From: Candidatus Krumholzibacteriia bacterium
GTDB lineage: Bacteria > Krumholzibacteriota > Krumholzibacteriia > WVZY01
NCBI GenBank assembly: GCA_036478295.1
Contig: JAZGDW010000040.1
Location: 1-37,805, forward strand
Length of the DNA stretch: 37,805 nucleotides
Direction: 5' to 3'
The translations under genes were made by a program, and so were the position numbers. The notes under the pieces are model-generated. The model searched no databases and was not told the origin of the DNA. It saw only the letters and a program-made list of their open reading frames with translations. Shown in pieces: positions 29,882 through 36,250 of the stretch (positions are counted from its first letter, which is position 1; each line of letters begins with the position of its first letter).

Positions 29882-30292
29882 ATGCTCTATATCACGCGCA
29901 AGATGCATTTCTGTGCGGCTCACCGCCTGTACGATGACTCGCTCTCACCGGAGGAAAACCGTGAGCGGTTCGGTGAATGCGTGAACCTGCACGGCCACAG
30001 CTATGTTCTGGAGGTCACCTTTGCGGGCAACCCCGATGAGAAGACCGGCATGGTCGTCCACCTCTCGGAGCTCGACGCCATCACCAAGGAACGCGTGGTC
30101 AGGCGCCTGGACCACAAGTATCTCAACGAGGACGTAGACGTCTTCAGGAGGGATGTCGTGCCTACGGTGGAGATGCTGGCGAAATACGTGTGGGAAAGGC
30201 TCGAAGGAGCGGTGCCGGGCGCCAGGCTGCACCAGGTCCGTATTCACGAAGACAACCTCTTCTACGCCGACTACTACGGCAAGGAATACTGA
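29882..30292 (+). CDS. queD: 6-carboxytetrahydropterin synthase / PTPS family (Cx3HGH motif)
   Basis: FCAAHRL, CVNLHGHSY, GMVV, LDHKYLN, PTVE. Confidence 0.85.
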   Translation: MLYITRKMHFCAAHRLYDDSLSPEENRERFGECVNLHGHSYVLEVTFAGNPDEKTGMVVHLSELDAITKERVVRRLDHKYLNEDVDVFRRDVVPTVEMLAKYVWERLEGAVPGARLHQVRIHEDNLFYADYYGKEY

Positions 30293-30297
30293 CGCCG

Positions 30298-30732
30298 ATG
30301 GTATACCTGACTTTTGCTTCGAGTTTCAACGCGGTGCACAGGCTGTGGAATCGGGACCTGAGTGAGGAGGAGAACAGAGCGATCTATGCGGAGTGCGCCA
30401 ACCCCGCCGGCCACGGCCATCAGTACAGGCTCGAGGTCACCGTGGCGGCGCCCGTCGGCGGCCGGCGACCCGTCGTCATCGCACGGGGGGCGGTGCAGAG
30501 GCTTGTCGATGAAGTCCTGAAGCCAAAACTTCACCACGCCGATATGAACACGGCGTTCGGTATCGACAATTTCATATCGACCGGCGAAAACGTTACCAAA
30601 CTGATCTGGCGCCTCATTCAGCCTGAAATCAACGAAGGCATCACGCTGGTCAGTGTAAGAGTTATCGAAACACACAAGAACAGTTTTACCTACCGCGGCG
30701 GGTCCGAGGAACCCGCGCTTCCGTCTGCGTGA
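30298..30732 (+). CDS. 6-pyruvoyltetrahydropterin synthase family (Cx5HGH motif)
   Basis: FNAVHRL, CANPAGHGHQY, STGEN, ETHKN; AAGGA RBS. Confidence 0.85.
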   Translation: MVYLTFASSFNAVHRLWNRDLSEEENRAIYAECANPAGHGHQYRLEVTVAAPVGGRRPVVIARGAVQRLVDEVLKPKLHHADMNTAFGIDNFISTGENVTKLIWRLIQPEINEGITLVSVRVIETHKNSFTYRGGSEEPALPSA

Positions 30733-30792
30733 AGGCCGTCAAGTGCCGTATGAGACCGCACGACGGTACCGGAGGCTTTGCAAGGAGAACTT

Positions 30793-31383
30793 ATGAGCGC
30801 TGTGAATCCGAAACATGACAAGATCGCGGAGTTCGTACGGGGGATTCTGGCCGAGATCGACGAGGACCCGAACCGGGAGGGACTCCTGCAGACCCCGAGC
30901 CGCGTGGGCGAGGCACTGGCGTATTTTACGCAGGGATACCACATCAACATCGACGAGATAATCTCCGACGCCGTGTTCAACGAAGAGCAGGAAGAGATGG
31001 TGGTGCTCAAGAACATCGATTTCTACAGCCTCTGCGAGCATCATCTCGTGCCGTTCTTCGGCAAGTGCCACATCGCGTATCTTCCGAGGAACCGCATCGT
31101 CGGACTGAGCAAACTGGCGCGCACGGTGGACGTGTTTGCCAGAAGGCTCCAGGTCCAGGAACGGATGACGCGCGAAATAGCCCATGCCATCGAGCGCAAT
31201 CTGCGACCACACGGGGTGGCCGTCGTCATCGAGGCCCAACACCTGTGCATGATGATGCGCGGCGTAGAAAAGCAAAATTCATTGGCGATGACCAGTACCA
31301 TGCTCGGCATGTTCAAGGAAGACGCCGCCGCGCGCATGGAGTATTTCAGCCTTTTGGGAAATCCGGGCAGAGGTTTTCGTTAA
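30793..31383 (+). CDS. folE: GTP cyclohydrolase I
   Basis: [55 protein letters not shown]. Confidence 0.97.
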
Positions 31384-32985: not shown

Positions 32986-33540
32986 ATGTCGATCAAACCC
33001 GACAAGTGGATCATGCGAATGGTCAAAGAGCACAACATGATCGAACCCTTCGTGTCGGAACAGATGAAGGACACCAAGGTGTCCTACGGTGTTTCTTCGT
33101 ACGGGTACGACATCCGAATTTCGGACGAGTTCAAGATTTTCACCAATATCAACACCACGGTTGTGGACCCGAAGCGATTCGACCCGAAGGCGTTCGTCGA
33201 TTACAAGGGAGACGTCTGCATCATCCCGCCTAACTCGTTCGCCCTCGGCCGGAGCGTCGAGTATTTCCGGGTGCCCAGGAACGTCATGACCATTTGCGTG
33301 GGAAAATCCACCTACGCCCGCTGCGGGATCATCACCAATGTGACCCCCTTCGAGCCCGAGTGGGAGGGGTTCATCACCCTGGAAATTTCGAACACCACAC
33401 CGCTGCCCGCGAAGATCTACGGCAATGAGGGAATCGCGCAAGTGCTGTTCTTTGAAAGCGATGAAGAGTGTTTGACCTCGTACGCGGACCGCAAAGGCAA
33501 GTACCAGGCGCAGAAGGGCATCACCCTGCCCAAGGTCTAG
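32986..33540 (+). CDS. dcd: dCTP deaminase
   Basis: [52 protein letters not shown]. Confidence 0.97.
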
Positions 33541-33610
33541 GTGACGGGTCGGGTCCCGGCTCGGGTGTGGAATATGGCCCTCAGAGCCGAAATGAGGCGA
33601 AAATCGCGTA

Positions 33611-33694
33611 AATTTTTCTTTGACAAGACTGGGGAATTCGGGTAATTGATACGGTATTCGGTATCTATTCAAGTTTTCATCCCAGAACAGGAGG
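33611..33694 (+). promoter_or_regulatory. Probable promoter region and strong RBS of the histone gene
   Basis: AT-rich tract then perfect TTGACA (33620-33625); -10 not clear-cut; AGGAGG at 33689-33694. Confidence 0.5.
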
Positions 33695-33701
33695 ATACTA
33701 G

Positions 33702-33890
33702 ATGGCAAAGGCAAGAAAAACGGGTGACCTGATCATTTCCAAGACCAGGACCAAGGCCGCCTCGAAGAAGTGCAACGTTTCAGGGGATTTCTACGGCGCG
33801 TTGGATCTGAAGGTTCGTGAAATGATCAAGAGTGCCGAAACAAGGGCGATTGCGAACAAGAGGAAGACCCTCAAGCCGGCCGACCTCTAG
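33702..33890 (+). CDS. Prokaryotic histone-fold protein (short, face-to-face/DUF1931-like class)
   Basis: 62 aa with 16 K/R vs 6 D/E; LIISK helix 1, NVSGDF loop 1, long helix 2, RAxANKRKTLKPADL with the RxTxxxxD clamp; strong RBS. Confidence 0.88.
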   Translation: MAKARKTGDLIISKTRTKAASKKCNVSGDFYGALDLKVREMIKSAETRAIANKRKTLKPADL

Positions 33891-33937
33891 ACCGGAGTCA
33901 ATTGACCGGCTTCTTAGTGAACCGGCCCACAGGAACA

Positions 33938-33980
33938 CCAAGGGTTCGGGCACGCGTGCTCGGACCTTTGGTCTTTCTCT
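33938..33980 (+). terminator. Intrinsic terminator after the histone gene
   Basis: CCAAGGGTTCGGGCA...TGCTCGGACCTTTGG about 15-bp stem with G.U pairs on the plus strand, followed by TCTTTCTCT. Confidence 0.7.
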
Positions 33981-33983
33981 CGC

Positions 33984-34637
33984 CTAGAACTCGAGGCGTA
34001 CCTCGACTCCCTCGATGTCGCGCATCGCCTGCACAACCCGGCCGTGCTTGTCGTCGGACGCCACGTATTCCACATCGACCACGATTTTCGTGTCCCCACG
34101 CCTCAATTCGAGGTTCTCCGGATTGATCCGGTAGGTGGCAAAGACTTTCTTGGCCGGTTTCATGGCGTTCGCCTCGATGGGAAACCGGAACTGCAGGATG
34201 TGGCGCCGCATCCGCACCGCCACCCGCTGCTCGATACTGCTGAGGAGGGTCAGGGTCAAGATGATCAGGATAGTAGAAGCCGACGCCAGCAGGTAGTCAC
34301 CCCAACCGATGACGAGCCCAATCGCGGCCACGAACCACAGGGTGGCCGCGCTGGTCAGGCCGATCACCGAAAAGCGCGACTGGATGATCATGCCCGCGCC
34401 GAGAAAACCGATACCGGTCATGACCTGCGATGCCATGCGCGAGGGGTCACCCATCCCCGCCCCCTGTCTGAAGACCTCGATGGACAAGATCATCAGTACG
34501 CAAGTACCCATGCACATCAGCATGTTCGTGCGCATTCCGGCGGGCTTGCCCTTGATCTCGCGCTCGATACCGATTAGCCCGCCGACAATGAGGGCGAAAA
34601 CCATCCGCATGACGTAGTGTGCAAAATCATTATCCAC
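33984..34637 (-). CDS. MgtC/SapB family membrane protein
   Basis: [41 protein letters not shown]. Confidence 0.93.
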
Positions 34638-34792: not shown

Positions 34793-36250
34793 GTGGAGAA
34801 AATTATCGGCAATGGGATTACTTTCGACGATGTTTTGCTGGTGCCCGCAAGGTCGTCGGTCCAGCCGTCCGAGGTGAGCACGGTGACACGTCTCACCAAG
34901 AAGATTCAGCTGAACCTTCCCATCGTTTCGGCGGCGATGGACACGGTCACCGAGGCGAACCTGGCCATCGCCCTGGCGCGCGAAGGTGGTATCGGATTTA
35001 TTCACAAGAATTTGAGCCCGATCGCGCAGGCAGGACAGGTGGACCGCGTCAAGCGCAGCGAGAGCGGCGTGATCCACAATCCGATCACCCTCGAGCCGGA
35101 TCAATCGGTAAAAGAAGCACTGGCCATGATGAAGAAATACCACATCTCCGGTGTGCCGATTACCGACAAGGGCAAGCTGGTGGGTATGCTTACCGGCCGA
35201 GACCTTCGTTTTATCGACGACGATTCCGCTCCCATCCGCGACTTCATGACGAAAGAAAACCTGGTGACCGCCCCTGAAGGCGTGACCATGGAGGAGGCCA
35301 AGCGGATCTTGCACGAGCACCGTATCGAGAAGTTGCCGGTCGTGGACTCCAAGAAACGGGTCAAGGGGCTCATTACGTTCAAGGACATCAAGAAGAAGAT
35401 GGATTTTCCCCTCGCCAGCACGGATCAAAAGGGCCGGTTGCGGGTTGGCGCGGCGATCGGGGTTGGCGCCGACGCCTTGACACGGGCCGACCTGTTGGTG
35501 GAGAGCCACGTGGACGTCGTGGTCATCGATACGGCCCATGGCCACACGCAAAACGTTCTCGACGCCCTGGTGACGCTCAAGACCCGGCACCGCAAGCTTC
35601 AGGTGATTGCGGGGAATATCGCCACCGCTCGGGCCGCGACGGATCTCATCAAACAAGGGGCCGACGGGCTGAAGGTAGGTATGGGACCGGGTGCCATCTG
35701 CACGACCCGGGTGGTCGCCGGTATCGGAGTGCCCCAGATCACGGCGATCATGGAGTGCGCGCGGGTGGCGTCGAAAGTCGGCATTCCGATCATCGCCGAC
35801 GGCGGCATCAAGTACAGCGGCGACATCGTCAAGGCCATCGCCGCCGGGGCCGACTCTGTGATGATTGGGAGTCTCTTCGCCGGTACCGAGGAGAGTCCGG
35901 GCCAGATAGAGCTTTTCGAGGGGCGGGCCTTCAAGATTTACCGGGGAATGGGTTCGATCGAAGCCATGAAGGGCGGCAGCGGGGATCGCTACCTGCAGGA
36001 AGGCGTGGAAGAGTCGAAGCTGGTGGCGGAAGGCATCGAGGGCCGCGTTCCCTTCAAGGGCAAGCTCACCGACTCGGTGTTCCAGCTGGTCGGCGGCCTC
36101 CGGTCTGGCATGGGTTACTGTGGTGTGGAGACCATCGACGACCTCAAGAAAAAGGGACGCTTTATCCAGGTCTCAGCCGCCTCGCTCAGGGAAAGCCACC
36201 CCCACGACGTCATGGTGACAAAAGAAGCGCCCAACTACCGGATCAGCTAG
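34793..36250 (+). CDS. guaB: IMP dehydrogenase with CBS pair
   Basis: [54 protein letters not shown] start after AGGGGGG. Confidence 0.98.

Follow-up and report, generated by a model that had tools for sequence, protein, structure and literature searches.

What kind of histone is encoded by a 62-residue open reading frame in the genome of a Candidatus Krumholzibacteriia bacterium, what would it do in a cell that also has HU, and what is its likely origin? A preliminary description of the window (the whole stretch of 37,805 nucleotides that was analysed) had taken the ORF for a stand-alone bacterial histone resembling a short archaeal type. The analyses described here place it in the face-to-face (FtF) alpha3 class, and the features needed to follow the argument are these:

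32986..33540, plus strand: dcd (dCTP deaminase), upstream neighbour of the histone gene
33620..33625, plus strand: -35-like hexamer TTGACA, conserved upstream of orthologues
33643..33648, plus strand: weak, putative -10-like TAATTG, at 17-nt spacing from TTGACA
33689..33694, plus strand: Shine-Dalgarno AGGAGG, 7 nt 5' of the ATG
33702..33890, plus strand: FtF histone gene, 62 aa, from ORF translation and alignment to the histones HLp and HTkC
residues 1-8 of the histone: short basic N-terminal tail, net +3
helix 1 of the histone, with S13, K14, R16 and K18, followed by long helix 2
R48 and N52 of the histone: tetramer contacts, by alignment to HLp and HTkC and from the papers on them
R54-D61 of the histone: RKTxxxxD, followed by the chain end at L62 (...PADL-stop)
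33937..33972, plus strand: terminator-like 16-pair hairpin with a modest T tail, CTTTCTCT
33984..34637, minus strand: MgtC-family gene, convergent with the histone gene
34793..36250, plus strand: guaB (IMP dehydrogenase), downstream of the histone gene

That the ORF is a real gene was supported by the 639 homologues collected for its product and by comparisons among 30 orthologous loci of the same phylum, in which pN was below pS in 29 of 29 cases (e.g., 0.033 vs 0.45 and 0.054 vs 0.83); the histone is under purifying selection. Its translation agreed with the preliminary description in position, length and net charge (+10, from 11 K, 5 R, 4 D and 2 E), and the truncated helix 3, the R54-D61 RxTxxxxD clamp and the end at DL were also as described. 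Measured over only 62 codons, its GC3 was 0.73, vs 0.79-0.82 in four neighbouring genes, and no match to the protein was found in the phage collection. The AGGAGG and TTGACA signals reported upstream were both present, and the latter occurred within 170 nt 5' of the IISK codons in 27 of the 30 orthologous loci, vs 4.6% of windows drawn at random from those loci. By eye, GGAG-type motifs preceded the orthologous starts, and TA-rich hexamers like TAATTG lay at the same spacing from TTGACA; a consensus scan of 33400-34100 accepted no promoter, nor TAATTG as a -10 element. The downstream hairpin folded with z = -3.29 and was equalled by none of 200 shuffles, so the terminator-like element stood, but as the histone gene lies on one side of it and the stop of the convergent mgtC (33984) on the other, it may serve both genes and need not be the “dedicated” terminator that had been claimed. 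Nor could the gene be called monocistronic, since the scan of 33400-34100 showed no terminator that would separate it from dcd, making read-through from dcd possible.

As had been anticipated for so small a gene, standard annotation misses it, with no match in Pfam and none in NCBIfam, and in the ESM Atlas the nearest clusters were unnamed, with one CBFD_NFYB_HMF lead at 0.89. The sole PDB sequence matches of the protein were 9F2C, the archaeal HTkC of Thermococcus kodakarensis, and 9QT0, the bacterial HLp of Leptospira perolatii, which are the two solved FtF histones. Single-sequence E-values were 0.0013 vs 0.0015, respectively, and a 45-row family profile matched 9F2C at 2.6e-7 and 9QT0 at 3.4e-5. 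Among the 10 PDB matches of that profile at E ≤ 10 there was no entry for HBb (Bd0055), which we take to be the dimer histone of Bdellovibrio bacteriovorus (PDB 8FVX, 8CMP), so that the proposed placement, away from Bd0055 and nearer to the short FtF histones of archaea, held. HMf-type nucleosomal histones carry the His of the four-helix bundle; here the residue three before the Arg, position 51, is Ala, in keeping with what had been read from the letters. Together with a helix 3 of one turn, against the roughly 10 residues published for HMf, and with no HMf match for either the protein or the profile at E ≤ 10, this led to the rejection of an HMf-type nucleosomal histone.

The published definition of the FtF class is a ring-shaped tetramer with conserved HMM positions R48, N52, R54, T56 and D61, the first two of which bacterial dimer histones do not have (Schwab 2024, PMC11390915). 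All five residues occur in the 62-aa histone at the very same numbers, and by alignment R48, N52, R54 and D61 correspond to R49, N53, R55 and D62 of HLp. R48 and N52 were invariant in the 45-row alignment, and R48, N52, R54, K55, T56, D61 and a chain end one residue past D61 were found in 120 of 120 proteins, a count that leans high, since these were the best 120 of 639 homologues and were gathered by shared words. The other marks of the class were likewise found, i.e., a helix 3 reduced to 3-4 residues, with helix 2 shortened as well, within a near full-length alignment to HLp and HTkC, R48 and N52 in combination with a free C-terminal carboxylate, the RxTxxxxD of R54, T56 and D61, and, in the model discussed below, a predicted tetramer via the end of helix 2, loop 2 (L2) and helix 3. 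The counterpart of R48 in HTkC is R45, and the R45A mutant of that protein is a dimer (PMC11390915; bioRxiv 10.64898/2025.12.06.692711).

The class named earlier, “face-to-face/DUF1931”, was therefore half right: the R48/N52 signature bears out face-to-face, but DUF1931 in the sense of a PF09123 pseudodimer was rejected, the protein being a single 62-aa fold with no PF09123 match. PF09123 matched 29 of its 45 relatives weakly, with a best E of 0.0031, and true DUF1931 proteins form a separate pseudodimeric cluster (Hu et al., bioRxiv 2025.05.08.652872); on short FtF proteins the name is a mere RefSeq label.

The modelling of dimers and tetramers, which had been proposed as a check, gave a dimer plus a dimer-dimer contact of the FtF type. 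The four-copy model scored 0.85, the best of three controls scored 0.00, the runs agreed on at least 98% of contacts, and pLDDT was at least 87. In calibration 20 of 30 proteins solved as pairs of one chain, and 1 of 23 solved as single chains, came up to the mark, with the qualification that two copies rather than four were used there and that the tetramer pass may be recall of 9F2C/9QT0. The scored copy contacts one partner along its whole length, as in a dimer, and another via residues 47-48, 51-52, 54, 58 and 60-61, i.e., the FtF interface; as the contacts were listed for one copy only, closure of the ring on both sides is deduced from symmetry. Cys24 in loop 1, invariant in 120 of 120 (again the best 120 of 639 homologues), packs in the model on partner-chain residues 46, 49, 56 and 57. 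The AlphaFold2 monomer model had a mean pLDDT of 66.6 and a pTM of 0.36, and a histone fold outside its dimer may score low; with this model (pLDDT 66.6) Foldseek found no match in the PDB and VIA-align returned generic helices at Z ≤ 4.5.

These data also bear on the reading of the protein as an HBb/Bd0055-type dimer that bends or coats DNA without a ring. The two types do share the alpha3-truncated fold and much of what first catches the eye, since a short helix 3, the RKTxxxxD motif and a basic helix 1 are present in bacterial dimer histones as well (PMC11390915). HBb, however, is without the R48/N52 pair and stays a dimer, and in the 62-aa histone that pair is invariant, the model shows a dimer-dimer contact, and neither protein nor profile matches HBb, a match that a different histone of this genome does produce (8FVX/8CMP, E 3e-10). 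The HBb-type reading is accordingly highly improbable, and from the HTkC/HLp-only PDB matches, the R48/N52 signature and the modelled contact we conclude that the protein is an FtF alpha3 histone, neither an HBb-type dimer nor a DUF1931 doublet.

Within the class its best PDB match is HTkC (9F2C; PMC11390915; bioRxiv 10.64898/2025.12.06.692711), with 16 of 42 residues identical in the aligned stretch and VSxxFYxAL, the tetramer Arg (R45 = R48) and RKTL in common. HTkC has His for the Asp of the R-D clamp and Glu for N52, whereas the 62-aa histone keeps both residues and differs further in its bacterial host and its short basic tail. HLp (9QT0-9QT2; PMC12701072) also has an N-terminal tail, is identical at 20 of 58 residues, and keeps all four of the aligned residues listed above, but judged from the profile alignment (HLp being outside the trees) it is a distinct sequence sub-type. 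The settings differ too: Leptospira is reported to have one histone and no HU, vs two histones and three HU/IHF genes in the Krumholzibacteriia genome, and the neighbourhood is smc/map for HLp but dcd/guaB here. The short haloarchaeal and DPANN FtF proteins, labelled “DUF1931 domain-containing protein” in RefSeq, have 44-56% core identity and do not differ in length between helix 1 and the C-terminal DL. Core charge is -4 to -8 in the haloarchaeal proteins, +1 to +5 in the DPANN-labelled ones and +10 in the 62-aa histone, and the signature IISKxRxK...CNV sets the clade of the latter apart from them.

The 62-aa histone is not the only candidate chromatin protein of its genome, which encodes three HU/IHF genes and an SMC hinge; HU/IHF was found in all 128 phylum genomes that are at least 90% complete. 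A paralogue search with the 62-aa histone alone found none in its own genome, but a broader histone profile recovered a second histone of 61 aa (C271:12080-12265, minus strand; L132:4081-4266). In place of R48 and N52 this protein has Lys and Ala, and it gave the 8FVX/8CMP match already mentioned; it is on these two grounds that we regard it as the HBb-like dimer type. Direct BLASTP of the FtF histone vs the second histone gave no alignment, both matching broad profiles. The second histone stands alone between a nitroreductase-like ORF and a secreted multiheme-cytochrome-like gene. At E ≤ 3e-15 a search of 128 phylum genomes recovered close orthologues of it in six (in 11 at E ≤ 1e-3), and five of the six also carry the FtF gene.

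Other histone combinations were seen in the phylum. Four genomes of family f7 (G018, G068, G136 and G042; loci L120, L121, L123 and L137) have a second histone, which bears a long Lys-rich tail as well as a short extension at its C-terminus and groups with Elusimicrobia-labelled sequences, so these genomes hold two FtF-like types. Six proteins of 117-122 aa (P0158, P0167, P0171, P0177, P0198 and P0213) consist of two tandem FtF-like folds and would form a ring from two chains; the three that were checked had weak matches to histone families.

How widely the FtF gene is kept was examined at several levels. The closest named relative, also a Candidatus Krumholzibacteriia bacterium (L034), has a 94% identical protein in the same gene order. 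The expected conservation of the ORF in relatives was found: with the 62-aa histone as query, 130 of 201 sampled phylum genomes matched at E ≤ 1e-3 and 123 at E ≤ 1e-12, the remaining seven belonging to family f5 and having a divergent histone. The broader profile, run on the 128 genomes at least 90% complete, matched 90 of them, and by family the gene is either retained (f1 7/7, f2 7/8, f4 3/3, f7 8/9, f6 57/58) or mostly absent (f3 1/11, f5 6/26, f8 0/4, f9 0/1); as most genomes of the latter four families yielded no match, part of the phylum can do without the gene. Beyond the phylum, the best 80 of 316 loci in the genome collection were all bacterial. In sets of 61 genomes, each of which includes a centre genome chosen for having the gene, the family profile matched 11 around the Eisenbacteria genome, 10 (9 strongly) around the Myxococcota one, 7 around the Methylomirabilis-labelled one, and 25 (only 2 strongly) around the Planctomycetota one. 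A locus titled Spirochaetales (L086/G204) falls in the same phylum sample as the Myxococcota genome, so the labels of some “Spirochaetota” members of the clade may be wrong. In one near-closed genome the histone match is split over two frames (G135:C1:1956114-1956285), either a frameshift or a sequencing error. The divergent histones of f5 (L118, L119 and L124, about 40% identical to the 62-aa histone) and one of f3 (L139, in G077) keep R48 and N52 and fall outside the clade of the 62-aa histone, which suggests, from their sequences, a further acquisition or fast evolution.

We consider it very probable that the FtF histone serves as a general, sequence-independent DNA-compacting protein with a ring-tetramer mechanism. 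Two chains would form a histone handshake dimer, and two such dimers would join into a ring where helix 2 ends, at loop 2 and at the one-turn helix 3. In this contact R48 would pair with the free carboxylate of L62, the C-terminus of the dimer facing it, and N52 would touch R54. DNA would lie on a basic and polar belt of S13, K14, R16 and K18 in helix 1, N25-S27 in loop 1, and K55 and T56 in loop 2, around which about 60 bp would be wrapped, and the short basic tail may add DNA affinity. The histone would work beside HU/IHF, SMC and the HBb-like dimer histone rather than replace them. We infer the tetramer in solution, the DNA wrapping and the high abundance from HLp and HTkC, both of which are characterised and wrap DNA around a closed tetramer. 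The “non-nucleosomal” chromatin of the preliminary description sits badly with that behaviour and was given up.

The main rival, given the presence of HU/IHF, SMC and a second histone, is that the tetramer exists but is a minor or conditional factor (local bridging, regulation, perhaps nucleotide supply via dcd and guaB) rather than the bulk organiser of the chromosome. With three HU/IHF genes, an SMC and a second histone alongside, the FtF histone need not be the main chromatin protein; bridging by HLp is not excluded in the preprint text (Hu et al., bioRxiv 2025.05.08.652872), and FtF expression is reported to vary among archaea. The flanking genes lend a functional link some colour within the order, where dcd adjoins the histone in 14 of 15 loci and guaB follows it at a distance of up to 1.5 kb in 11 of them, and to that extent the synteny proposed earlier was borne out. 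It went no further: mgtC was present in only 3 of these 15 loci, is no fixed neighbour and was rejected as a functional partner, and none of dcd, guaB and mgtC was present in the 1.5-kb flanks of the histone at 15 loci taken from the phylum's other families. Among a further 87 loci any of five neighbours was found in 16, none of them labelled Myxococcota, Planctomycetota, Methylomirabilota or Eisenbacteria. A neighbourhood confined to one order fits, and looks like, inherited gene order, and a minor role is further opposed by the conserved consensus -35 and strong ribosome binding site and by the abundance reported for the characterised FtF histones; we judge it improbable. Further upstream of dcd are two tandem PTPS/QueD-family genes (29882-30732 and 30778-31383), and after them genes for GTP cyclohydrolase I and a class-V aminotransferase and one of the thiamine-binding family, together a pterin or queuosine precursor cluster.

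The question of origin was approached with trees of 55 columns, unrooted, with 124, 54, 49 and 54 rows (subsets), from all of which HLp, HTkC, HBb and nucleosomal histones were absent and in which archaeal sampling consisted of protein matches plus four plasmid records, with few archaeal rows named. In each of the four, a starred branch set off the clade of the 62-aa histone (99/95, 96/93, 97/93 and 95/92, the bootstrap of the first not being fully settled), which forms one bacterial group among Halobacteria- and DPANN-labelled FtF histones. A second group, of Elusimicrobia and Diapherotrites-type rows, was split from this sub-clade by a 100/99 branch in two of the trees; HLp resembles it in the profile alignment, and a pairing of Leptospira with Iainarchaeota has been described (Schwab 2024, PMC11390915). 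In a tree that included dimer histones, the sub-clade stood beside an Altiarchaeota-labelled row (90/82) and Halobacteria (92/83). Core identity to the 62-aa histone was 42-56% for DPANN-labelled proteins, 44-50% for Halobacteria (45-52% for haloarchaeal plasmid copies), and 33-40% for the second bacterial group. AU tests rejected all bacterial rows as one clade (p 0.021, 0.0014 and 0.006), part of which is due to the Elusimicrobia rows nesting among Diapherotrites-type ones. A Halobacteria plus DPANN-labelled clade without the sub-clade was marginally rejected (p 0.040) in a post hoc test, the group having been picked after the trees and one long-branch Thorarchaeota row dropped. Neither the sub-clade and Halobacteria as sisters (p 0.20) nor the phylum's own copies as one clade (p 0.079) was rejected. 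The tail-less 56-aa copies of f6 fall outside the starred set of tailed forms and other phyla, and these sequences give hints of an entry of the gene through this phylum.

An archaeal affinity of the sub-clade, as far as sequences of this length speak to it, is thus moderately supported; a specifically haloarchaeal sister or donor is neither shown nor excluded, the DPANN-labelled proteins being equally close. A tentative proposal, to which we give somewhat less than even credence, is that the sub-clade (IISKxRxK...CNVxxxFYxALD) is a second bacterial FtF lineage that was acquired from an archaeon independently of the Leptospira/Elusimicrobia type, is near-fixed in five Krumholzibacteriota families with tail-less 56-aa forms branching first, gained its basic tail, and was passed on to Eisenbacteria, Methylomirabilota, Myxococcota and some Planctomycetota. 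What competes with it is descent of all bacterial FtF histones from one ancient bacterial or LUCA gene, the likeness to archaea being due to slow evolution or to the poor resolution of 55 columns. Separate bacterial and archaeal FtF clusters have been published (Hu et al., bioRxiv 2025.05.08.652872), the single-sequence E-values to HTkC and HLp are alike, and in unrooted trees with few named archaeal rows no starred branch joins the clade to a named archaeal group. Such a single origin has to contend with the AU rejections of bacterial monophyly, the marginal post hoc rejection of Halobacteria and DPANN without the clade, and the position of the clade in the tree with dimer histones; it is nonetheless a serious possibility, to be held at a little under an even chance.

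Much of the setting is already in print. FtF histones of Spirochaetota, Planctomycetota, Bdellovibrionota and Myxococcota have been published, as have the basic tails of bacterial FtF histones and archaea-to-bacteria transfer (Schwab 2024, PMC11390915; transfer also in Hu 2025, PMC12701072), and LUCA descent vs repeated transfer is stated in the papers as an open question. The 62-aa histone belongs to this described class, with a possible archaeal origin of bacterial FtF histones likewise on record. Eight rows of Table S1 of Hocher 2023 (PMC10627809) have the IISK signature (Planctomycetes, Deltaproteobacteria and unassigned bacteria); in file 8 of that paper the phylum is first listed in Table S4, a list of genomes that comes after the histone table. 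No Krumholzibacteriota histone was matched in the searched parts of the supplements of PMC11390915 and PMC12701072, and no paper linking histones to this phylum was found in the literature accessed; the taxonomic figures and alpha3 tree of PMC11390915 may already include the clade or the phylum. What is new is worthwhile but incremental, namely another FtF lineage in bacteria, of archaeal affinity, and the presence of two classes of histone in a single genome that also has HU, and none of these additions is a new kind of system.

Their value lies in what they allow. Only two bacterial histones had been characterised at the time of Hu et al. (bioRxiv 2025.05.08.652872), and the differences between HLp and HTkC have been read in print as bacterial vs archaeal; a bacterial protein of the HTkC-like sequence type, cheap to express, tests that reading directly. 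If the second-lineage proposal is true, the histone would be expected to behave like HTkC, with a regular protection ladder and hypercompaction, and not like HLp, and the chromatin of this genome would have three layers, with a tetramer that wraps DNA, an HBb-like dimer that bends it, and HU/IHF. The natural pairing of an FtF and a dimer histone in one genome also allows a test of class mixing, and the near-complete retention of the gene (57/58, 7/7 and 7/8 genomes) argues for a lasting function in bacteria that, unlike Leptospira, have kept their HU/IHF.
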